From: a virus
IMG/VR virus record: IMGVR_UViG_3300027749_000042
Length of the DNA stretch: 64,000 bases
Reading direction: 5' to 3' (one strand)
The translations under genes and the position numbers were made by a program. The notes under the pieces were generated by a model. That model was not told the DNA's origin and searched no databases. It saw only the letters and a program-made list of their open reading frames with translations. Numbering within the stretch: position 1 is the first letter of the stretch; every line of letters begins with the position of its first letter. Positions 29,638 through 39,771 of the stretch are shown here, piece after piece.

Positions 29638-29789
29638 TGAAACTTGCTTGGTTATGTTACCCACACGATTATGGAGATGATCCAGATGATCTGTATCCTG
29701 TGATTCGTTTCGTAGAACCAGAGCGTTGGGTGTGGCGCAAAATTGTGCCTATCGTCTATGCTATATTAGAGGTTGACAACGATGAATAG
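29637..29789 (+). CDS. Small hypothetical protein
   Basis: MKLAWLCYP...PIVYA coupled ORF. Confidence 0.55.
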   Translation: MKLAWLCYPHDYGDDPDDLYPVIRFVEPERWVWRKIVPIVYAILEVDNDE

Positions 29790-30228
29790 ACGTAGTATGC
29801 TATCCTTTCTCGGTATTGGTGCTGTTGCTGGTACAGCCGTTGGTAGTCGTGGCTTTGATAATCCTGTTCCTTCTACTCATGGCACAACTTACGATATGGC
29901 ATATTCTATTACCAAAGAACCATACGACATTCCTATGGTAAAAGATACCACTGCATATGTCAAAGAAATGCAGGAACAGCTATCGCTAATCACTAGTGAC
30001 CCTGCTAAATGGATCGCTCAGAGAGTTACTGACGAAATGAAAGACTGGCGTATGGGATTTTCAGGTGTCAGGTTCAATGATATTGATCCCGATATTCGCA
30101 ACATGAAATCAATCACAGAAGTGGCTAAAATGCGTATATACTTTGAACGGCGAGCAACACGGCAAGCTGAAGTCAATCAAACGTCTTTGACACACCGCAT
30201 TGCAGAATATCTGGGAATTAACAAATGA
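29782..30228 (+). CDS. Protein with twin-arginine-like signal
   Basis: MNRRSMLSFLGIGAVAGTAVG. Confidence 0.6.
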   Translation: MNRRSMLSFLGIGAVAGTAVGSRGFDNPVPSTHGTTYDMAYSITKEPYDIPMVKDTTAYVKEMQEQLSLITSDPAKWIAQRVTDEMKDWRMGFSGVRFNDIDPDIRNMKSITEVAKMRIYFERRATRQAEVNQTSLTHRIAEYLGINK

Positions 30229-31484: not shown

Positions 31485-32170
31485 ACACTGCTAAAATTAT
31501 TGCTATGACAGAACCGAAGATTTGGACGGATGCACCCGGTGATCCTCAGAAGCTTTCGGTTGATGAGTTTATCGCATACGTGGCCCGCGTGAGTAATCCA
31601 TCTAATCAGAATAACTCACTGACAGCTTCAAAGCTTTTGAAGTACCTTGCGAAGCATAAGCATTGGTCACCGTTTGAGATGGTTGATGTGGTGATGGAAA
31701 TCAATACCACCCGTGATATTGGTAGACAGATCCTGCGTCACCGTTCATTCCGTTTTCAGGAGTTCAGTCAACGCTATGCCGATCCCACAAAAGACATGGG
31801 GTTCGTTACCCGTGAAGCCCGTCTACAAGACACAAAAAACCGACAGAACTCGATTGAGATTTCCGACGAAGATCTCAAACGGGAATGGCACAACAACCAA
31901 GTCATGCTCATCAAAGCAGCAGAACAAACATACAACTGGGCAATCGAAAACGGAATCGCAAAGGAGCAAGCTCGTGCTGTACTACCTGAGGGACTTATTC
32001 TTAGTCGCATGTATATGGCTGGCAGCCTTCGCTCTTGGATCCATTATTGCCAAGTAAGAACAGACGCAAGCACTCAGAAGGAACACCGTGAGATTGCTAT
32101 GCAGGCCTGGGATCAGATTACCGACGCATTCCCATCGCTCAAAGAAGTACTGGCATCCCTTGACATATAA
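31481..32170 (+). CDS. thyX: Flavin-dependent thymidylate synthase
   Basis: HWSPFE, RHRSFRFQEFSQRY (RHRX7S), AKEQARAVLP. Confidence 0.97.
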   Translation: MNTAKIIAMTEPKIWTDAPGDPQKLSVDEFIAYVARVSNPSNQNNSLTASKLLKYLAKHKHWSPFEMVDVVMEINTTRDIGRQILRHRSFRFQEFSQRYADPTKDMGFVTREARLQDTKNRQNSIEISDEDLKREWHNNQVMLIKAAEQTYNWAIENGIAKEQARAVLPEGLILSRMYMAGSLRSWIHYCQVRTDASTQKEHREIAMQAWDQITDAFPSLKEVLASLDI

Positions 32171-32173
32171 ATA
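32166..32173 (+). promoter_or_regulatory. T4-type late promoter for the curli operon
   Basis: TATAAATA 5 nt upstream of the csgF ATG. Confidence 0.7.
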
Positions 32174-32178
32174 GGTGC

Positions 32179-32619
32179 ATGAGAAAGCTTTTAGTAGCTT
32201 TGTTATGTGTGGCTGCAATGCCGCTATATGCGACCGAACTACAGTTTAACTTTAAAAGCCCCGCCTTCTCAGGTGTGGGCTTTTCTTCACATGTCCTAAC
32301 CATTGAGAACTTAGAACAGACCAGACGCCAGAAGATCATGGATGACAAGGTTGCGGCTGCATCCAAGGCCGCATCTGATGCAAAGAATACGAACCTTGCG
32401 AAGTTTATCAATAACCTCGAGAGCCGTGTATATGCTACACTCTCACAGAAGATAGCCGAGCAGTTGTTTACTGATAATGGTGCAACGTCTGGCACATTTA
32501 GCATAGCGACAAACAATGTCCAATGGTCATCGGATGGTTCACAGATTACATTACGAATAACCGACGCAGCTGGTAGCGTCACAGAGGTTGTGGTTCCCTA
32601 CGGGAGTTTAGCATGGTAA
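32179..32619 (+). CDS. csgF: Curli assembly protein CsgF
   Basis: Signal peptide, then TELQFNFKSPAFSG (CsgF N-terminal FxNPxFxG motif), G..TEVVVP C-terminus. Confidence 0.85.
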   Translation: MRKLLVALLCVAAMPLYATELQFNFKSPAFSGVGFSSHVLTIENLEQTRRQKIMDDKVAAASKAASDAKNTNLAKFINNLESRVYATLSQKIAEQLFTDNGATSGTFSIATNNVQWSSDGSQITLRITDAAGSVTEVVVPYGSLAW

Positions 32620-33413
32620 AGATTGGTATGGTATTGGTAGGCCTACTGTTGGCTGGTTGCTCGCCAACGCTTATGTCAAAGGATGTGATTGAAGAGGTAG
32701 CAGACGCACCAGAAATCATTATGAACAAGCGGTTCAATGAGTTGGCTAATTTGAGAGGTGTGAATGGCGATATCATTCCGATCGCAGTCTACCGCTTCCC
32801 GGATATGACTGGTCAACGCAAGCCCGCTACCAACTTTGCCAGCTTGAGTTCCGCAGTCACGCAGGGTGCAGAGGTATTCCTGATAAAAGCTCTCCAGGAC
32901 GCCGGTAGGGGTCGGTGGTTTCAAGTGGTAGAGCGGGCCTCGCTTGAGAACCTGGTAAAGGAACGCCAGCTCATTCGTAGCCAACGTGAGCTATACGAAA
33001 AGGATCAGGCAAAGCCGCTTACACCACTGACCGTCGCAGGTATTATGATTGATGGTGGGATTGTTGGCTTTGATTCAAACATTGGCACTGGTGGTATTGG
33101 CGCACGATTCCTTGGCGTTGGGGCCAACCAAGAGTACCGTAAGGATGAAGTCACGGTGGTTCTGCGTTTGATATCCATAAACACAGGCGAAGTTCTGTTG
33201 TCCACTGGATCATCCAAGACTATTCTAAGCACCAGCGCAGGTGCGAATGTGTTTAAGTTTGTTGATGCGGGTACAAGGTCTGTCGAGTTTGAAGCTGGAA
33301 CAGCAGCGAATGAACCTACAACATATGCAGTTAGAATAGCAATAGAAGCCGCAGTGGTCGATATGATAAAAGAGGGAGCCAAAAAGAAGCTCTGGAGTAT
33401 CAAGAAGAGGTAA
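32613..33413 (+). CDS. csgG: Curli secretion channel CsgG
   Basis: Lipobox LAGC, AVYRFPDMTGQRKP, SSAVTQG, WFQVVER, L.KERQLIR. Confidence 0.93.
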   Translation: MVKIGMVLVGLLLAGCSPTLMSKDVIEEVADAPEIIMNKRFNELANLRGVNGDIIPIAVYRFPDMTGQRKPATNFASLSSAVTQGAEVFLIKALQDAGRGRWFQVVERASLENLVKERQLIRSQRELYEKDQAKPLTPLTVAGIMIDGGIVGFDSNIGTGGIGARFLGVGANQEYRKDEVTVVLRLISINTGEVLLSTGSSKTILSTSAGANVFKFVDAGTRSVEFEAGTAANEPTTYAVRIAIEAAVVDMIKEGAKKKLWSIKKR

Positions 33414-33418
33414 ACAAA

Positions 33419-34096
33419 ATGAAACGTACAAGACTGGCATTTTTGTCATTCTTGGTTATGCTTCAATATGCAAACGCCGCGAGCAATAGTGTGTATGTAG
33501 ACCAAATCGGTAGTGGTTCTACAATTTCTATGACTCAGACTGGCAATTCGAACGTGATTGGAAATTCTACCGACAAAGCAATATTCAACGGGCAGAACAA
33601 TACTGTCACGATTGACCAGATTGGTAACACCAACCTAATGAGCATCAATGTTCAAGGTGATGGCGTAACCGCGTCTTCACTTGTTACTGGTGATAATAAC
33701 ACCATCAACATGCAATGCGGTGTCAGTGGTACATGTACTGGTTCAACATTGAATAATACCATCACAGGCGATAACAACGTAATCACTCAAAAGGCCGAGG
33801 GGTTCACGATATCCAACGTGACGGTAAACACAGACAACAACACCGTAAACATAGAGAATGATTCCAGCGCAGTCGCGGGTGCGAAGAGTACGGTTCTTAT
33901 TGACGGTGGTGGTGGCAATAGTGTCAACATCATTCAGACAGGCGTAGCATCTACGAATGGACATGAAGCCGATGTGAATATCTTAGGTGCAACAAACACT
34001 GTAGATATAAAGCAAGGTGGCGGTGTTGACTCTAAGGTCATTTCTACAATCACTGGTTCTGGCAATACTCTGCTTATCAAGTCCAACCACAACTAA
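33419..34096 (+). CDS. Curlin-repeat protein (CsgA/CsgB-like)
   Basis: Signal peptide, repeated xQxGxxNxxxI units, N/T/G rich. Confidence 0.8.
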   Translation: MKRTRLAFLSFLVMLQYANAASNSVYVDQIGSGSTISMTQTGNSNVIGNSTDKAIFNGQNNTVTIDQIGNTNLMSINVQGDGVTASSLVTGDNNTINMQCGVSGTCTGSTLNNTITGDNNVITQKAEGFTISNVTVNTDNNTVNIENDSSAVAGAKSTVLIDGGGGNSVNIIQTGVASTNGHEADVNILGATNTVDIKQGGGVDSKVISTITGSGNTLLIKSNHN

Positions 34097-35126
34097 GTCT
34101 GAAGTTGGTAAGGTCACAGAGCAAACGGGCCCAGCAGAAATAAAGCGTGATGCTAACTTGATTTCCAGCGCACTATCCAGTGGCGTTGAGATGAAAGATA
34201 CCATAACGACTGCGAACGGGAAAACTGGTATCACATTCCAAGATGATACCAAAGTTCAGATAACGGAGCACAGCCGCCTTGTCATTGACAATTTTGTTTA
34301 CGACGGTGAAAAGAAAACTGGCAAGCTTGGCATCAAGATGGCGCTCGGCACTATCAAATATGCATCCGGGCAAATTGCTAAATCAGATCCGCAACAAGTC
34401 ATGGTGGAAACACCAACAGCAACAATCGGTGTCCGCGGAACTGATTTCTCAGGTACCGTCGATGAGATCGGTCGTTCTACTATTATTTTGCTTCCTTCTT
34501 GCCCTGCTGGTTGGCGCAATATTGAACGAGACTGCGTGGTTGGTTCCATATCTGTTACTACGGATATGGGCACTATCTGGTTAACCAAACCATTTGAGAC
34601 TGTCAATGTGCAGACCAGTATCAGTACACCAAAATCCAGCATTATGAACCTGAATTTGGATCAGATAAATAATATGCTTATCGTAGCACCAGCAAAACCT
34701 GTTGTGCGTGAGCAACCAGTTGAGCGTATCGCAAACGTACTAGACGCAGATTTACTTGGCATTGATTTTCTCAAATACAGCGAACTTGAAAAGAACTACC
34801 TTACAGAGTACAATAAACTTGATAGGAACTTTCTTGATAGTGATTACCTGTTGAACTTTCTAGACCTATCCAGTTCACAGATGCTAACTAACGAGCTTGC
34901 GGAATTCAATGCGTTGCTGCCTAAATATAATGCTTCAACAGGCCTAAAGTATTTTGTCGAGCAGGATAATGTGACGCTCTACCGCGAATCGTATAACTCA
35001 TATATGGAATTGACGGTATCAACTACGCATAACATGACATTGAATTTGACTCAGGATGGTGGTTCAGTGACGCAGATGGTAAACAGTGCTGGAACCACAA
35101 CGATAACTATAAAGCAGGGCAACTGA
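34017..35126 (+). CDS. FecR-domain exported protein
   Basis: Signal/TM, F.D.T.V.I...S.L.ID.FVYD, TPTATIGVRGTDF. Confidence 0.85.
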   Translation: MAVLTLRSFLQSLVLAILCLSSPTTTKSEVGKVTEQTGPAEIKRDANLISSALSSGVEMKDTITTANGKTGITFQDDTKVQITEHSRLVIDNFVYDGEKKTGKLGIKMALGTIKYASGQIAKSDPQQVMVETPTATIGVRGTDFSGTVDEIGRSTIILLPSCPAGWRNIERDCVVGSISVTTDMGTIWLTKPFETVNVQTSISTPKSSIMNLNLDQINNMLIVAPAKPVVREQPVERIANVLDADLLGIDFLKYSELEKNYLTEYNKLDRNFLDSDYLLNFLDLSSSQMLTNELAEFNALLPKYNASTGLKYFVEQDNVTLYRESYNSYMELTVSTTHNMTLNLTQDGGSVTQMVNSAGTTTITIKQGN

Positions 35127-35389
35127 TGAAAACATTAATCGCGCTCCTTCTAATGACAACGCCTGCTCTATCGCAGACAGTAAATAATGCAACCGTGAAC
35201 ATCATAGGATCCTTACAGAATGTTAGTATTACTCAGTCTGGTGCTAATCATAGTGCTACCCTTAGTTTCACTGGTGATAATATCTCGGCTATTATCTCTC
35301 AGTCTGGAAACACGCCTCAGTCTTTTAGTCTTAGTGTTACTTGTGGTCTCAATTGTCCCAATAGCCCTTATATCGTTAGCCAATACTGA
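35126..35389 (+). CDS. Small curlin-like protein
   Basis: Signal peptide, ITQSG/ISQSG repeats, CxxxC. Confidence 0.65.
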   Translation: MKTLIALLLMTTPALSQTVNNATVNIIGSLQNVSITQSGANHSATLSFTGDNISAIISQSGNTPQSFSLSVTCGLNCPNSPYIVSQY

Positions 35390-37446
35390 TGGAAAAGCTA
35401 GTCAAGTTTCTTACAAGCACATGGATGGTTGCTATCAGCGCCTGTCTCCTGTTGACATTGTATGTAATCAATCCCAGTCCAATACAAAAGCTACAATTGA
35501 ATACGTTCGACCTCTTCATAACTTCTCTGGAGAAGAAACAATCAGAAGAGATTGTAATTGTTAACTTTGGTGAGAAGTCGGTCGAGAAGTTTGGTCAGTG
35601 GCCATTTGACAGACGAGATATCGCAAAGACAATCAATAAACTAAAAGAGAACGGCGCTTCGGTAATCGTTGCGCCTATTCTATTCTCTGAGAAAGATAGA
35701 GCGGGAGGCGATGATGAACTGGCAAAAACTCTTGAAGGTGTTGTCCTCGCTCAAACCCCTACTACTCAAAACAGTAAGCCCGACTCGGTTCGTCGTGGGT
35801 TCGCTGCTATCGGTCCTGTTGATCCTGCTAGGGTTGTCTATCGTTGGCCTGGTGGATTACGCCCTCTTGACAAGTATGCCGAAGTTGCCTCAGGCGTTGG
35901 TGTGGTCGCAACAATCTCTGAATTGGACGGTGTGGTTCGCCGTATGCCTCTACTTGTCAATATTGCATCTGGTCTTTATCCAAGTATTCCTTTGGAAACC
36001 ATTCGTGTCGCTGCTGGAGACCCTAGCTTCCAAGTTAAGACGAACGAAGGTGGAATAGAGGCTGTAAGAGTCCCAGCTTTTCCACCAATCTCAACCGATG
36101 AAAGAGGTCGTATCTGGTTGACTTGGAATACCAAGTTTGATACGCTAGAAGCAACTGAAATAGACGCCCGCGTGAAGGACAAGATTGTTATTCTTGGTTT
36201 AACGATTGAAGGTGTTGGGGGTATTATAGCCACACCAATCGGTGAAAAATGGGCGCACGAAATTCAAGCGCAGACACTTCAAACACTGGTAGACGGAACT
36301 TCTATTTCTCGCCCCAACGTAGGAAGGCTAATAGAAGGAGCACTACTAACCACCATCCTGCTACTATTGCTCCATATAGTTCCAAGACTGACGGTAGCGT
36401 TAACGGTTCCATTCTACGCTTTCATTGTGGTTGGAGTATCAGCAGCGAGTTATTATTTATTCAAAACAGAGCTACAGCTATGGGATGCAAGCTATATTGT
36501 ATTGGCTATATCTGTTGTATATGGACACTTGGTATTCAACAATTTCGCTCGTGAGTTTAGACTAAAGCAACAAATTAAAAAGCAGTTCGGTACTTACCTT
36601 TCACCTGCACTGGTCGAGAAACTACAGAAGAACCCAGAACTATTGTGCTTGGGAGGAGAGACCCGCGAGCTATCTATTATGTTTACTGACGTTAGGGGCT
36701 TTACGACTATCTCTGAACATTACGGTAATGACGTACAGGGCCTTACGAAAATAATGAACCGTTACATGACAGCGATGACAGCTAAGATAATTCAAAACGA
36801 CGGCACACTAGATAAGTATATCGGTGACGCGCAGATGGCATTTTGGAATGCGCCACTTGATGACGCAGACCATGCGAAACACGCAGTAAAGACAGCACTG
36901 GAGATGTTAGGTGATTTGGAACGATTTAACAAAGAGATCGCCACTGAGGGTGTTCCACCCTTTGGTATGGGTCTTGGGATTAACACAGGCTCCGTTGTGG
37001 TTGGCAATATGGGTAGTAGTCAACGCTTTGATTATACTTGTCTCGGTGATACTGTCAATCTAGCCTCGCGCCTGGAAGGGCAGAGCAAGCCATATCATGT
37101 GAAGATGGTCATTGGTCCTAAGACTTATGAATATGTGAAGGATGAATATCTATGCGTGGAACTTGATTGCCTTGCCGTGAAGGGTAAGAGCGAAGGTGTG
37201 AAGATATACACCATCGTTGAAAAGATTGGTATCAATAAGGCGTATGCTCGCACACACGCAGACTTCATCAAATACTATCGCGCACAGGAATGGGACAGAC
37301 TTGAAAATTATTTTCATGTACTAGAATCCGCATTTGGTGGTGATCTAAAAGAATATTATGAAATGATGAAAGAGCGCGTGGAGGACTATAAAAAGAATCC
37401 TCTACCTAAGGATTGGGATGGCGTATTCCGTACCAACAGCAAGTAA
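35389..37446 (+). CDS. CHASE2-domain class III adenylate cyclase
   Basis: GQWPFDR...LFSEKDR..GDD (CHASE2), 3 TM, FTDVRGFT, DKYIGDAQMAFW, GINTG..VVGNMGS..RFDYT..GD.VNLASRLE. Confidence 0.95.
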   Translation: MEKLVKFLTSTWMVAISACLLLTLYVINPSPIQKLQLNTFDLFITSLEKKQSEEIVIVNFGEKSVEKFGQWPFDRRDIAKTINKLKENGASVIVAPILFSEKDRAGGDDELAKTLEGVVLAQTPTTQNSKPDSVRRGFAAIGPVDPARVVYRWPGGLRPLDKYAEVASGVGVVATISELDGVVRRMPLLVNIASGLYPSIPLETIRVAAGDPSFQVKTNEGGIEAVRVPAFPPISTDERGRIWLTWNTKFDTLEATEIDARVKDKIVILGLTIEGVGGIIATPIGEKWAHEIQAQTLQTLVDGTSISRPNVGRLIEGALLTTILLLLLHIVPRLTVALTVPFYAFIVVGVSAASYYLFKTELQLWDASYIVLAISVVYGHLVFNNFAREFRLKQQIKKQFGTYLSPALVEKLQKNPELLCLGGETRELSIMFTDVRGFTTISEHYGNDVQGLTKIMNRYMTAMTAKIIQNDGTLDKYIGDAQMAFWNAPLDDADHAKHAVKTALEMLGDLERFNKEIATEGVPPFGMGLGINTGSVVVGNMGSSQRFDYTCLGDTVNLASRLEGQSKPYHVKMVIGPKTYEYVKDEYLCVELDCLAVKGKSEGVKIYTIVEKIGINKAYARTHADFIKYYRAQEWDRLENYFHVLESAFGGDLKEYYEMMKERVEDYKKNPLPKDWDGVFRTNSK

Positions 37447-37450
37447 GATA

Positions 37451-37891
37451 TTATACTTTCTTATTTTTCTTGTCTGGCTCTTGCTTGGTATTTTGCTCTG
37501 GGTTCGCTATGGACCCGTCATCTACATTGACAGCCTCGTGGTTATGTTTGGCTGCTAGTTCTTCCGCAGCTTTCACTTGTTTGTCCGCTGCTTCTAATTC
37601 GCGCTTTTGTGCTTTGGCTGCGGTTTCAACATCGTGCAGATGGCGTTCGGATTCAATTTCTTTGCCACGCAACTGGAGAACAATATTGATTTTCTGGTTC
37701 AAACGGATAAGGTCATTGTCGAGCATACGAATGCGGTCGATCAAAGCAATAAGAACGGTGCTTGCTTCACTTGTGACTGGTTTGATTTCTTTGGTTGCCC
37801 ATGTCCATACATAGTAAATCATGTACCCCATGCCACCAGCAGCGACAATAGGAAAGCCATATTTGTTAATTAGATCAGCAATACCATCCAT
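37451..37891 (-). CDS. Small membrane/coiled-coil protein (YvrJ-like GFPI motif)
   Basis: GFPIVAAGGMGYMIYYVW TM plus coiled coil. Confidence 0.75.
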   Translation of the reverse strand: MDGIADLINKYGFPIVAAGGMGYMIYYVWTWATKEIKPVTSEASTVLIALIDRIRMLDNDLIRLNQKINIVLQLRGKEIESERHLHDVETAAKAQKRELEAADKQVKAAEELAAKHNHEAVNVDDGSIANPEQNTKQEPDKKNKKV

Positions 37892-37896
37892 GTTTA

Positions 37897-39372
37897 TTAC
37901 CTTTCGTAAACCTCATTGCCTATGACAAGCATATCAATGGCATTTGTTTCATATTCATAAAGAGCATTTGCAGAAAATGCTGCAATTGGATTTCCAGCGT
38001 TATTCAAACTCGTATTTAGAAGAACTGGACAATTAGTTAGCTCATAAAATTTTTCAAGCAATTGCCGAAATTGCCCAGTTGTTACGGTTTGAAATCTGCA
38101 AGTACCATCAACATGTGTTATTGATGATAGATTATCTTTCTGTACTTTACCCACATATAGCATATAAGGATTTTCATAATCCACATCAAAATACTCTTTT
38201 GCAAATTCTGCTAATATGGAAGAACCAAATGGTCTAAAAGATTCTCGATTCTTTACCCGATTGATTTTGTCTTTGCCATTTACAATTCTAGGATCCATAA
38301 GTATGGATCTGTTACCCAATGCTCTAGGTCCAATCTCTCCATTACCCTGATACCAAGCAACTATTTTACCATTGGCTAAAGCATTTACAACTCTATCTAA
38401 TTGTAAGCATTCGGATGGAGGAGATTCGTCTGATTGGCAAAAAGGAAAATTGCTCATACTTAACCTAGGTAGATTATGTTTTCTGCGTAGAAATTCCATG
38501 CCACCCAAAGATAAACCTTCATCGCCAGAATACGGCATCACTACAAGATTTGGATATTTTTCTTTGAGTTTGGAATTCCATATCACATTCTGAGCGACAC
38601 CACCACTATAACCTATTCGTTCATTCGGTTTAGCGTATTTTTCAAATAGCTCTAAAACCATTTCTCCATATCGTTCATGGACAGTTCTTAACCAATTTAA
38701 TTTTTTGGTATATCCTTCAAAAGTATACATCACAGGATTTATATTATAGATATCGTATTTTCTTAATAGCTTCAATAGTTCATTATCAATGTTACCATAA
38801 GATTGTGCTCCCATTAACTTACCAGCCAAATCTATATCGTCGCCTTTTATATTTAACTTATGACCTATGTGTGTTAAACTGAAACCTATAGACCCAGCTA
38901 TATCTATATAACCACAATCAAGAAACTGTTCTCCACGATATACGGACCAACTCTTCAATGATCCTTTACCATCTATATTAATGCTGATATCAACGTCTTC
39001 TAAAAGAGAAACACTAAGAGCGTGTGCGTAATGATGGTCTATAAATTTTGTTCCGTCGGTAGATTCACAATATATGTGCTTTATTAGATTTTTAAAATTT
39101 GATTGCGGCTCAACTGTATTAGAGTCAGCAGAAACAAAAATTACATCATCAACATCGTCTCTACTAACACCCCATATTTTTTTTGTTATATCATCACAAT
39201 CGTTAACAGATAATTTGTGGTGTTTTATCTGAAACATTCTTTCGCTTTTAAAATAACGAATAGTTTTTCCATCAAAATAGCTGATATTCGAATCATGTGC
39301 AGCATAACGTCTAATAGTAGGTGGTGGTGTTTCGTACGGCCAAACATGATATGACAAAAATTTCACGATCAA
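37897..39372 (-). CDS. Carbamoyltransferase (NodU/CmcH family)
   Basis: HDS, DHHYAHA, DG.G, GKLMG, GGVAQN, GPRALGNRSIL, KNRE.FRPF, THVDGT.R.Q, LNTSLN. Confidence 0.95.
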   Translation of the reverse strand: MIVKFLSYHVWPYETPPPTIRRYAAHDSNISYFDGKTIRYFKSERMFQIKHHKLSVNDCDDITKKIWGVSRDDVDDVIFVSADSNTVEPQSNFKNLIKHIYCESTDGTKFIDHHYAHALSVSLLEDVDISINIDGKGSLKSWSVYRGEQFLDCGYIDIAGSIGFSLTHIGHKLNIKGDDIDLAGKLMGAQSYGNIDNELLKLLRKYDIYNINPVMYTFEGYTKKLNWLRTVHERYGEMVLELFEKYAKPNERIGYSGGVAQNVIWNSKLKEKYPNLVVMPYSGDEGLSLGGMEFLRRKHNLPRLSMSNFPFCQSDESPPSECLQLDRVVNALANGKIVAWYQGNGEIGPRALGNRSILMDPRIVNGKDKINRVKNRESFRPFGSSILAEFAKEYFDVDYENPYMLYVGKVQKDNLSSITHVDGTCRFQTVTTGQFRQLLEKFYELTNCPVLLNTSLNNAGNPIAAFSANALYEYETNAIDMLVIGNEVYER

Positions 39373-39489: not shown

Positions 39490-39771
39490 TTAATCCCTTC
39501 GTGCGTCATTCTTACCATCCGCTCTTGCGATACGATCCACATCTGGCTTCACACCAAGAGCATTCGAAACCAAAGTGTCAATACGAATAACATCGTGGTT
39601 CATTGTCTTTACTCGATTGTCCAGCGCGGTGATGATGCCAGATAGACCCTTGACACTGGACATAACACCTGCTAGAATGAATTTCATTGTGAGGAATACG
39701 AAGTAGCCACCCGCACACGCAGCCGCGATAGGAAAGCCAACTTCTGCAACTAATTTGAACCATTGATCCAT
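39490..39771 (-). CDS. Small membrane/coiled-coil protein, paralog of 37451-37891
   Basis: GFPIAAACAGGYFVF TM; ALDNRVKTMNHDVIRI. Confidence 0.75.
   Translation of the reverse strand: MDQWFKLVAEVGFPIAAACAGGYFVFLTMKFILAGVMSSVKGLSGIITALDNRVKTMNHDVIRIDTLVSNALGVKPDVDRIARADGKNDARRD

Follow-up and report, generated by a model that had tools for sequence, protein, structure and literature searches.

The window analysed here (the whole 64,000-nt stretch of IMG/VR virus record IMGVR_UViG_3300027749_000042) belongs to a T4-like aquatic myophage with a GC content of ∼43%. It contains a cassette of six plus-strand genes that overlap or nearly abut, in the order csgF, csgG, curlin, FecR, curlin and cyclase, preceded by a promoter-like motif:

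32166..32173, + strand: TATAAATA, motif resembling a T4-type late promoter; shares bases with the thyX stop, and 5 nt separate its end from the csgF ATG
32179..32619, + strand: csgF, 146 aa, secreted protein that caps the curli (type VIII) pore and anchors the nucleator (PF10614, E 1.8e-18, whole profile)
32613..33413, + strand: csgG, outer-membrane lipoprotein channel of curli secretion, 266 aa (PF03783, E 1.4e-52; lipobox LLAGC)
33419..34096, + strand: curlin-repeat fibre subunit (CsgA/B-like) of 225 aa; signal peptide, ∼9 repeats (PF07012, E 3e-5)
34026..35126, + strand: secreted FecR-domain protein, 366 aa from a TTG start, 369 aa if from GTG 34017 (PF04773, E 1.7e-10)
35126..35389, + strand: short curlin-repeat protein of 87 aa; signal peptide, ∼3 repeats (PF07012, E 2.2e-5)
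35389..37446, + strand: CHASE2–3TM–class III adenylate cyclase of 685 aa; its 75-aa C-terminal tail is conserved (PF05226, E 2.8e-40; PF00211 (Guanylate_cyc), E 4.4e-22)

An earlier note on this DNA had named these six genes and their domains at this place, and all of them were borne out by the plus-strand open reading frames and Pfam matches. The csgF product matched phrog_35372 (E 5e-44) and begins with a hydrophobic signal segment (hydropathy), and its mature N-terminus, F-x-F-K-S-P-x-F, is kept across aligned relatives. CsgG, in which the noted lipobox was present, aligned over its full length with the E. coli CsgG structures 3X2R, 4UV3 and 6L7A (E 4e-48) and was 41–52% identical to alphaproteobacterial CsgG. 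Invariant Q, G and N columns recur in a 16-homologue alignment of the first curlin. What varies in the cassette is the second-curlin slot; it was absent in 20 of 48 relatives, so that the second curlin is dispensable, and otherwise coded for a protein that was small or up to ∼640 aa. Domain and PHROG scans found no CsgE, CsgC, CsgH or CsgD homologue in the cassette, as also reported for the published cluster (PMC9599517).

The cyclase appeared catalytically intact, as the earlier note had read from its metal-binding Asp residues, NxxxR motif and ATP-type Lys/Thr specifiers: D434, K476, D480, T550, N557 and R561 fell on the positions for metal, substrate and transition state in CyaC (1WC0) and CyaB (3R5G), and these six residues were invariant in 12 homologues that were 50–84% identical. 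Hydropathy indicated one N-terminal transmembrane segment and a three-TM block at ∼312–385. At least 593 relatives of the cyclase are present in IMG/VR. A gene for a holin-like small membrane protein (phrog_18771; weak holin match) converges on the cyclase stop.

The genes are tightly packed. csgF and csgG overlap by 7 nt, csgG is separated from the first curlin gene by 5 nt, and 1-nt overlaps of the ATGA type join fecR to curlin2 and curlin2 to the cyclase gene. The FecR signal peptide is coded within the 3′ end of the curlin gene with either possible start (overlap 71–80 nt). The 80-nt overlap proposed before corresponds to GTG 34017; TTG 34026, with AGGTGG ahead of it, is a more likely start and would give 71 nt, a start inside the curlin gene that distinguishes this locus from those of the cultured phages described below. 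Such overlaps and abutments argue for translational coupling of the cassette genes. The designation 'late operon' received moderate support. TATAAATA occurs 11 times in the 64-kb window against 2.8 expected, and 24 of 67 distinct relatives carry an exact copy upstream of csgF, where it mostly starts 22–33 nt before the ATG. However, the spacing of 5 nt at csgF is atypical, as other sites in the window with a downstream start codon are 18–27 nt away; the same -13 geometry was found in HTVC008M and in the near-identical relatives L048 and L083.

The motif and the holin-like neighbour bear on a hypothesis of Buchholz et al. (2022) and Zaragoza-Solas et al. (2020), in print for phage Melnitz (PMC9004378). 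According to it, the CsgG/CsgF pore was re-purposed as a gated outer-membrane channel (pinholin-/secretin-like) that times lysis or imports solutes, with curlin-like proteins and the cyclase regulating the gating. A late-promoter motif and a holin-like gene beside the cyclase would fit such a role, but the latter is not kept in Melnitz or HTVC008M. Curlin-repeat substrates with signal peptides are coded beside the pore in all relatives; because these are bona fide curlin substrates, it is wrong to presume a lack of fibre genes, and we consider a re-purposed channel very unlikely.

The gene cluster had been published before: a module of viral type VIII secretion (T8SS), FecR and adenylate cyclase was reported from marine phages by Wittmers et al. 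(2022; PMC9599517), together with its distribution and expression in the ocean. The pelagiphage T8SS module (PMC9599517, PMC7029224, PMC9004378) has the identical gene order (csgF, csgG, curlin, FecR, second curlin and cyclase), as in the cultured Pelagibacter phage HTVC008M (gp014–019) and Methylophilales phage Melnitz (gp99–104). Here as there, it is set between the replication module and the structural module of a T4-like myophage genome, and thyX is close by. The window phage represents a separate lineage (cyclase 42–44%, FecR 37% and CsgG 44–50% identical to HTVC008M and Melnitz), and its second curlin, at only 87 aa, is shorter than theirs (338 and 441 aa). The earlier statement that no characterised curli-FecR-cyclase circuit was known passed over Wittmers et al., in which the cluster, but not its mechanism, is described. 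The CHASE2 domain and the bacterial FecR–CHASE2 pairing are not mentioned in any of the three papers.

Wittmers et al. took FecR for an iron regulator, in keeping with its name, which would tie curli expression to iron (ferric citrate) status. The FecR Pfam domain is indeed present, with the invariant R137-G138-T139 expected from the noted RGT motif, and the protein matches phrog_37870 (E 2e-96). Nevertheless, its layout differs from that of a Fec regulator: a signal peptide leads into a FecR β-sandwich (∼25–215), which a variable linker connects to a conserved C-terminal domain of six strands (300–366), and neither a cytoplasmic anti-sigma domain nor an internal TM helix was found by model and hydropathy. 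ECF sigma factor and TonB-dependent transducer domains were absent from the cassette and the two scanned flanking genes on each side, and the bacterial relatives of this FecR pair with CHASE2 sensors and adhesins rather than with Fec genes. Iron regulation is therefore a highly improbable function.

The AlphaFold model of FecR (pLDDT 85.5) superposed on the PupR CCSSD (6OVK; Z 15.0, rmsd 2.8 Å, 137 residues) and on the anti-sigma protein 4M0N (Z 14.1), and residues 24–118 matched the RIN plug domain 5IX9 (Z 10.8, rmsd 2.2 Å, 73/76 residues, 20% identity). On this modelling, FecR is predicted to fold like the PupR/FecR signalling domain and the RIN plug, both of them periplasmic domains whose docking partners are outer-membrane proteins. 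In FecA–FecR–FecI and PupB–PupR–PupI, the PupR C-terminal signalling domain shares the phage FecR fold and docks on an outer-membrane protein; the phage protein differs in lacking an anti-sigma domain, a sigma factor or TonB-dependent transducer partner, and any anchor beyond the signal peptide, and the output of the proposed phage system would be cAMP instead of sigma-factor release. The RIN module of type I-secreted giant adhesins (MpIBP, LapA) is an adhesin N-terminus working with TolC (T1SS), whereas the phage FecR is a free 366-aa protein and its pore would be CsgG (T8SS).

Comparison among phages confirmed that the curli–FecR–CHASE2 cyclase cassette is real and strongly conserved. Curli genes, FecR and cyclase were kept together in all 48 distinct informative IMG/VR loci seeded with the cyclase, and in 30 of 30 seeded with CsgG, across 39–100% CHASE2 identity. 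The idea of one functional unit, put forward in the earlier note, holds, and the linkage of FecR and cyclase to the curli genes was found in every informative relative, even in L204, where the order is csgF-csgG-cyclase-X-FecR-X; extra genes are inserted in L209, and in one relative (L023) the cyclase lies behind an unrelated gene. On the other hand, the members have not been inherited equally. FecR was co-inherited with csgF/csgG (r 0.94–0.96), whereas CHASE2 domains 76–82% identical to that of the window adjoin FecR domains just 46–49% identical, and the reverse was also seen. The cyclase gene has thus recombined against a csgF-csgG-FecR block, with a breakpoint between FecR and cyclase, and any FecR–CHASE2 contact is consequently not lineage-specific. 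In podovirus versions of the cluster the cyclase is less frequent (Wittmers et al., PMC9599517), so the curli and FecR part is evidently able to persist without it.

These patterns are relevant to the possibility that FecR is a structural curli accessory (working in the periplasm as a gate, plug or chaperone in place of the missing CsgE, CsgC or CsgH) and that the cyclase is an exchangeable add-on acting separately. Such a role would suit the missing CsgE, CsgC, CsgH and CsgD, the inheritance of FecR with csgF/csgG while the cyclase was swapped, the resemblance of residues 24–118 to the RIN plug, which blocks the TolC pore (PMC5550230), and the constancy of FecR in viral clusters in which the cyclase is just 'frequently' present (PMC9599517). 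Yet the cyclase was missing from none of the sampled myophage relatives, and FecR genes repeatedly adjoin CHASE2 in bacteria without curli genes, which speaks for a FecR role connected with CHASE2. We regard a purely structural FecR as possible but rather unlikely.

The bacterial evidence for this pairing is considerable. In a systematic sample of alphaproteobacterial loci, a FecR ORF adjoined CHASE2 in 14 of 40 (∼1 expected), as it did at 11 of the 43 closest bacterial cyclase loci; in three whole bacterial genomes, a FecR gene lay within 5 kb of four of the six CHASE2 genes, with only 10 FecR genes in 9.9 Mb. FecR domains near bacterial CHASE2 are often the N-terminal domain of giant RTX/cadherin-type adhesins beside secretion genes. 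Published operons also carry the pair (PMC5192318; cyaD1-smc02177, PMC5498481). One of them, 'BiofilmReg' of Burkholderia, encodes a response regulator, a LysM/FecR periplasmic protein and a CHASE2 histidine kinase (PMC5192318). There too the gene of a secreted FecR-domain protein directly adjoins that of a CHASE2 sensor, and the system is tied to biofilm formation, but its output runs through the histidine kinase and response regulator instead of a cyclase, and the operon has no secretion system or fibre genes. An experimental precedent is the NsrA–CyaD1/CyaD2/CyaK–Clr system of Sinorhizobium meliloti, in which an outer-membrane β-barrel, NsrA, activates CHASE2 class III cyclases and the resulting cAMP works through Clr (PMC13001267). 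As in the phage, a FecR-domain gene (smc02177) adjoins cyaD1 (PMC5498481); the outer-membrane partner is NsrA rather than CsgG, and the receptor Clr is known, whereas the phage encodes none. Adjacency, published operons and this precedent indirectly support a FecR–CHASE2 link. It should be noted that smc02177 is a cAMP/Clr target and is not needed for plant-signal perception (PMC5498481); thus, a FecR neighbour is not necessarily an input.

The two parts of the cassette are separate in bacteria. Alphaproteobacterial curli operons resemble the phage in that csgF and curlin-repeat genes adjoin csgG without CsgE, CsgC or CsgD (PMC9599517), but no FecR-domain gene or CHASE2 cyclase lay within ∼9 kb of the seven closest csgG loci, and no csg gene was found at 83 CHASE2 loci; the modules were never combined at the closest bacterial csgG or CHASE2-cyclase loci. 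This separation, together with the breakpoint between FecR and cyclase, would be expected if one operon served two independent functions: curli for aggregation ('sibling capture') or phage exclusion, both published hypotheses (PMC7029224, PMC9599517), and FecR/CHASE2 for sensing an unrelated periplasmic cue and reprogramming host metabolism via cAMP. However, FecR is interleaved between two curlin genes and overlaps both neighbours, the full set is kept across deep divergence and after rearrangement, and FecR is co-inherited with csgFG and not with the cyclase, although the reverse would be expected of a self-contained FecR/cyclase unit. Independent functions therefore seem unlikely.

The cassette is best explained as the version of the published 'viral type VIII secretion' module that a T4-like myophage carries, in which two bacterial units of alphaproteobacterial type are fused. 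Since FecR is inherited with csgF/csgG in phages, stands beside CHASE2 in bacteria and has a docking-type fold, we propose, at about an even chance, that it is the adapter between the phage-made curli machine and the CHASE2 cAMP sensor. The surface-sensor circuit of the earlier note was partly supported; in it, curli or CsgG would be the sensor, the signal would run from FecR to CHASE2, and cAMP made late in infection might time lysis or aggregation. In the first unit, CsgG would form the outer-membrane channel capped by CsgF, and the curlin-repeat proteins would be exported and polymerise on the surface of the infected cell, probably late in infection. The second unit would comprise the periplasmic FecR-domain protein and the inner-membrane CHASE2 adenylate cyclase, a pair common in bacteria. 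Through contacts with both, FecR may inform the CHASE2 domain whether the curli pore or fibre is assembled, loaded or in contact with a surface, and CHASE2 would then set cAMP synthesis in the infected cell. As no cNMP-binding receptor or domain was found in ten cassette-carrying phage genomes, this cAMP would presumably act on a host receptor.

The six open reading frames described in the earlier note were found on the plus strand at 32179-37446, where the Pfam domains agreed with the earlier assignments and all six proteins scored above curated cut-offs (CsgF, CsgG, curlin-repeat, FecR-domain, small curlin-repeat, and CHASE2 plus class III cyclase):

32179-32619 (+): csgF, accessory protein (PF10614, E 1.8e-18, positions 6-132 of 132)
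32613-33413 (+): csgG, outer-membrane lipoprotein channel (PF03783, E 1.4e-52; lipobox LLAGC)
33419-34096 (+): curlin-repeat protein
34026-35126 (+): FecR-domain protein
35126-35389 (+): small second curlin-repeat protein
35389-37446 (+): CHASE2 adenylate cyclase

The csgF and csgG genes overlap by 7 nt, csgG and the curlin gene are separated by 5 nt, and one-base overlaps of the ATGA type join FecR to the second curlin gene and the latter to the cyclase. CsgF, CsgG, FecR and the cyclase each matched a PHROGs phage family that carries no annotation. The alignment of CsgG with the E. coli CsgG structures spans the whole protein (E 4e-48); the CsgF sequence gave no match to solved CsgF. Both curlin-repeat proteins exceeded the PF07012 cut-off and possess signal peptides, and invariant Q, G and N columns recurred in a curlin alignment of 16 homologues; they are predicted to be exported amyloid-fibre subunits. 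No domain of the CsgE gate or the CsgC/H inhibitor of the gammaproteobacterial type was found in the cassette, which does not disqualify it as a curli system because alphaproteobacterial curli operons lack them as well (PMC9599517).

The genome is that of a T4-like myophage, with gp32, baseplate tube cap, hub/lysozyme and tail genes (PHROG matches), and the cassette is flanked by thyX directly upstream and by a carbamoyltransferase gene downstream. The latter (37897-39372, minus strand) is of the NodU/CmcH type, with Carbam_trans_N and Carbam_trans_C domains and a match to phrog_1601 ('Nol-like carbamoyltransferase'), in a region of low GC content compared with its surroundings (0.37). A 146-aa membrane protein (37451-37891, minus strand) converges on the cyclase, the two stops being 4 nt apart; it matches phrog_18771 (E 2e-31), with a weak match of residues 1-21 to the holin family phrog_4898. 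Its N-terminal GFPI..AA motif is shared, as judged by eye, with the ORF at 39490-39771 (minus strand), and neither gene is conserved beside the cassette in the cultured phages Melnitz (Methylophilales) or HTVC008M (Pelagibacter). On the other side, a 151-aa ORF (29773-30228, plus strand) starts with MTTMNRRSMLSFLGIGAVAG, which resembles a twin-arginine (Tat) signal peptide, unusual in a phage protein.

Viral curli genes have been noted several times. In pelagimyophages, csgF and csgG were reported together with three unassigned genes (Zaragoza-Solas et al., 2020; PMC7029224), and a lysis-timing pore was proposed for Melnitz in a study whose main text mentions neither FecR nor the cyclase (Buchholz et al., 2022; PMC9004378). 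Exactly the present cluster was described in Pelagibacter podo- and myoviruses (CsgF, CsgG, CsgA/B, FecR, a second CsgA/B and adenylate cyclase, plus a histidine kinase in podoviruses), and thus the gene cluster is already known (Wittmers et al., 2022; PMC9599517). In our cassette, csgF, csgG, curlin, FecR, second curlin and adenylate cyclase are likewise co-linear, as in the definition of the viral T8SS-FecR-AC cluster. The same authors found the viral cluster to be global and transcribed, with a presence at all 65 GOV2.0 stations, traced CsgG, CsgF, FecR and the cyclase to Alphaproteobacteria, and observed that FecR, kinase and cyclase do not occur in bacterial curli operons; they read FecR as an iron regulator and did not mention CHASE2 (PMC9599517). 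The connection between CHASE2, FecR and adhesins may be the new part.

A megablast search of the cassette against GenBank phages gave no match, and its relatives were detectable at the protein level only. The cyclase search matched HTVC008M and four Melnitz isolates (42-44% identity), in both of these phages all six genes are present and their order is that of the window, and IMG/VR yielded at least 593 relatives of the cyclase. The claim that the cassette is one conserved unit was borne out by the IMG/VR loci that were retrieved and annotated with proteins of the window, Melnitz and HTVC008M. Among distinct cyclase-seeded loci with enough upstream sequence, csgG, curlin and FecR were present in all 48 and csgF in 44, the other four loci ending before csgF; conversely, FecR and the cyclase followed in 30 of 30 distinct CsgG-seeded loci with enough downstream sequence. 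The second curlin gene is a variable slot: it was absent in 20 of the 48 loci, where FecR overlaps the cyclase directly; in many others it is short, and elsewhere it reaches several hundred residues. Linkage was also kept after rearrangement, as in locus L204 (csgF-csgG-cyclase-X-FecR-X) and in L209, with two additional genes ahead of the cyclase. The sole exception seen was L023 (1-3272), whose cyclase (69% identical) is preceded by an unrelated SGGSDS (PP-loop-like) protein, and no curli or FecR genes were found in the 8 kb downstream. Five loci (L049, L053, L056, L057 and L059) contain 3-5.5 kb of additional DNA between a large second curlin-repeat gene and the cyclase.

Domain-wise identities revealed that csgF, csgG and both FecR domains vary together, and that the cyclase does not track them. 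Four relatives have a CHASE2 domain 76-82% identical to that of the window, but their csgF (33-36%), csgG (46-50%) and FecR domain (46-49%) are much more distant, and other relatives have csgG and FecR 85-90% identical and CHASE2 only 65-67% identical. Correlations of distance matrices were 0.94-0.96 inside the curli-FecR block and 0.66-0.73 between the block and CHASE2. Comparison of L004, L006, L010 and L019 (window-like cyclase, no second curlin) with L020, L030 and L087 indicated recombination inside the cassette: the cyclase gene does not share the history of the csgF-csgG-curlin-FecR block, and the breakpoint lies after FecR and ahead of the cyclase. On the basis of the identities and distance matrices, FecR is inherited with the curli genes in phages and the cyclase is exchanged against them, a pattern which leaves room for the explanation that FecR is chiefly an accessory of the curli machine. 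Because of this mosaic inheritance, any contact between FecR and CHASE2 must use conserved surfaces. It should be noted that in mirror-tree partial correlations FecR bridges csgF/csgG and CHASE2; however, gene order and recombination produce the same pattern, and it was not counted as evidence of contact.

The cassette had been proposed to be a late operon. The motif TATAAATA occurs in 11 copies in the window versus 2.8 expected. One of them, at 32166, lies across the thyX stop, with a gap of 5 nt between its end and the csgF ATG. The remaining copies that have a start codon downstream lie farther from it (18-27 nt), in most cases with a ribosome-binding site between. In T4 late promoters the motif is located at about -13 to -6, that is, about 6 nt upstream of the transcript start, and is followed by a leader with a ribosome-binding site. 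With only 5 nt between motif and ATG, a transcript from 32166 would begin at the A of the csgF ATG and would thus be leaderless. An exact TATAAATA was found upstream of csgF in 24 of 67 distinct relatives, mostly starting 22-33 nt before the ATG, and HTVC008M has the same compressed -13 geometry. The motif is no accident of this genome, and since it recurs upstream of csgF in relatives, late expression of the cassette is plausible.

The CHASE2 domain (PF05226, E 2.8e-40) covers cyclase residues 21-326. Hydrophobic segments at 4-32 and 310-358 exceeded the hydropathy threshold, and a third helix of the C-terminal group near 366-385 was read from the sequence rather than from the threshold; this layout fits CHASE2 sensors, with an N-terminal transmembrane helix, periplasmic CHASE2, three transmembrane helices and a cytoplasmic catalytic domain. 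Alignment with CyaC (1WC0) and CyaB (3R5G) identified the metal aspartates (D434 and D480), the substrate pair (K476/T550) and the transition-state residues (N557 and R561). Across 12 homologues with overall identities of 50-84%, all six of these residues, and the catalytic domain for the most part, were invariant, and the cyclase is, by these residues, predicted to be catalytically intact and strongly constrained. No cNMP-binding domain (PF00027) was present in genome G001 or in a further ten cassette-carrying phage genomes, which were mostly complete or nearly so and included the deposited HTVC008M and Melnitz. If cAMP is produced, its target would have to be a host protein or a receptor that is not recognised as such.

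The FecR frame opens at a GTG (34017), and a TTG at 34026 has a good upstream AGGTGG; whichever start is used, the signal peptide coding sequence lies out of frame within the last curlin repeat, with an overlap of 71-80 nt, a layout that closer relatives retain. The protein has a signal-type hydrophobic segment (1-19) followed from about residue 25 by the FecR domain (PF04773, E 1.7e-10). A sequence search against the PDB gave no matches, and its fold relationships were seen only via an AlphaFold model, which was built from 72 homologues and is confident (pLDDT 85.5). The modeled chain starts with a signal helix and a β-sandwich (28-206), continues through a variable linker that is disordered and a single helix, and ends in a C-terminal domain of six strands. 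The modeled β-sandwich resembles the cell-surface signalling domain of PupR (6OVK, Z 15.0) and a Bacteroides anti-sigma periplasmic domain (4M0N, Z 14.1), and residues 24-118 match the RIN domain of the Marinomonas ice-binding adhesin (Z 10.8, rmsd 2.2 Å, 73 of 76 residues). RIN is a periplasmic plug that holds a type I-secreted adhesin in its TolC pore (PMC5550230). The end of the C-terminal domain is conserved and includes an invariant glutamine; the domain gave no Pfam match and, when folded alone (pLDDT 89), had no clear PDB relative (best Z 3.5) and no Foldseek match. Its ending (N-x-T-x-x-I-x-Q ... T-I-x-I-x-Q) was considered as a curlin repeat, which was not supported: hhalign of the C-terminus against the curlin alignment gave a weak match over 12 columns, at a probability of 16%.

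The phage protein does not have the cytoplasmic anti-sigma domain and single transmembrane helix of FecR/PupR regulators, and hence it is not a FecR-type anti-sigma factor. Neither an ECF sigma factor nor a TonB-dependent transducer was found among the cassette genes and the three flanking ORFs scanned. The view that this FecR is an iron regulator was rejected on protein architecture.

To find bacterial relatives, a cyclase profile was run against prokaryotic genomes, each species being represented by one. The full cassette turned up on three contigs, all from bins of metagenome-assembled genomes (L124, L125 and L126, Bacteroidetes/Chitinophagales). The flanks of L125, the one checked, strongly matched phage-only PHROG families and contained radical-SAM genes typical of these myophages, and on this ground all three were taken as probably mis-binned phage contigs. 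True bacterial CHASE2 cyclases (26-33% identity) followed, with Alphaproteobacteria (Micavibrio, Micropepsaceae) at the head; of these 43, none had csg genes nearby and 11 were flanked by a FecR-domain ORF. Conversely, the seven nearest alphaproteobacterial csgG genes (41-52% identity to that of the phage) adjoin csgF and curlin-repeat genes, and no FecR or cyclase gene was found within about 9 kb of them. In three whole genomes (9.9 Mb) with only 10 FecR-domain genes, four of the six CHASE2 genes had one within 5 kb, and of 40 alphaproteobacterial CHASE2 loci sampled systematically, 14 had an adjacent FecR ORF (about one expected) and none had csgG. The window has such a pair as well, its FecR and CHASE2 genes being parted only by the 87-aa curlin gene. 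Published examples are a Burkholderia operon that pairs a LysM/FecR protein with a CHASE2 kinase (PMC5192318) and smc02177 (FecR) beside cyaD1 in S. meliloti (PMC5498481); our literature search on the FecR–CHASE2 pair found no report of a physical or functional protein interaction for any member. The activation of CHASE2 cyclases by the outer-membrane barrel NsrA in S. meliloti, which raises cAMP (PMC13001267), provides an experimental precedent for a path from an outer-membrane barrel through a CHASE2 cyclase to cAMP.

The FecR neighbors of alphaproteobacterial CHASE2 cyclases are frequently giant. Proteins of 953 to over 2290 aa directly beside the cyclase (alphaproteobacterial loci L221, L231, L235 and L248) consist of an N-terminal FecR domain and then cadherin-like, Big_9, Calx-β, LamG or RTX repeats, the FecR domain taking the position of the retention module in adhesins of the LapA/MpIBP type. 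On the Micavibrio aeruginosavorus chromosome (L134, 4832-17380), the CHASE2 cyclase lies between a TolC-like/ABC(C39)/HlyD type I secretion system and a 1052-aa protein with BapA_N-like, FecR and FG-GAP domains, with a cNMP-binding EAL phosphodiesterase next door; this is possibly a complete adhesin–cAMP–c-di-GMP circuit. Thus, a FecR-like domain tied to a secreted fibre on the cell surface recurs in bacteria together with a CHASE2 cyclase and a dedicated outer-membrane pore, and the phage cassette has the same theme with curli replacing the type I adhesin. A literature search found no paper linking CHASE2 with adhesin retention modules. A seawater contig (L207, 3459-9467) encodes a 706-aa FecR-domain protein after a 1243-aa two-partner-secretion (TPS domain) exoprotein, and is another case of a FecR domain adjoining a secreted fibre.

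The 'FecR' gene, rather than being an iron regulator, is the usual companion of CHASE2 sensors and in many cases part of an adhesin. The interpretation in the earlier note is supported in part. The link between FecR and CHASE2 that it had drawn is well grounded in comparative genomics through this bacterial adjacency; that the curli act as the sensor, which way the signal runs and what it does to the cell are inferences. Since FecR is inherited with the curli genes in phages and accompanies CHASE2 in bacteria, it may act as an adapter between them. A broader reading, which we consider rather unlikely, is that FecR-like domains and CHASE2 form a general 'surface-fibre sensor' and that the phage captured the circuit for the surface state of the infected cell. 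A FecR/RIN-type plug would sit where a secretion pore of the outer membrane opens into the periplasm; this pore would be the type I adhesin pore in Alphaproteobacteria and the CsgG curli pore in phages. CHASE2 would read the plug, so that fibre assembly, load or contact with a surface or cell would lead to cAMP, and the phage would sense whether the infected cell is coated, attached or aggregated and adjust late functions accordingly.

Phage-encoded curli systems are abundant in the ocean and supply a surface structure that the host lacks. FecR as the partner of CHASE2, together with an intact cyclase, makes the purpose of phage curli a testable question, namely whether the phage gauges its own surface fibres and responds with cAMP. 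If true, this would provide the first handle on what CHASE2 domains sense.
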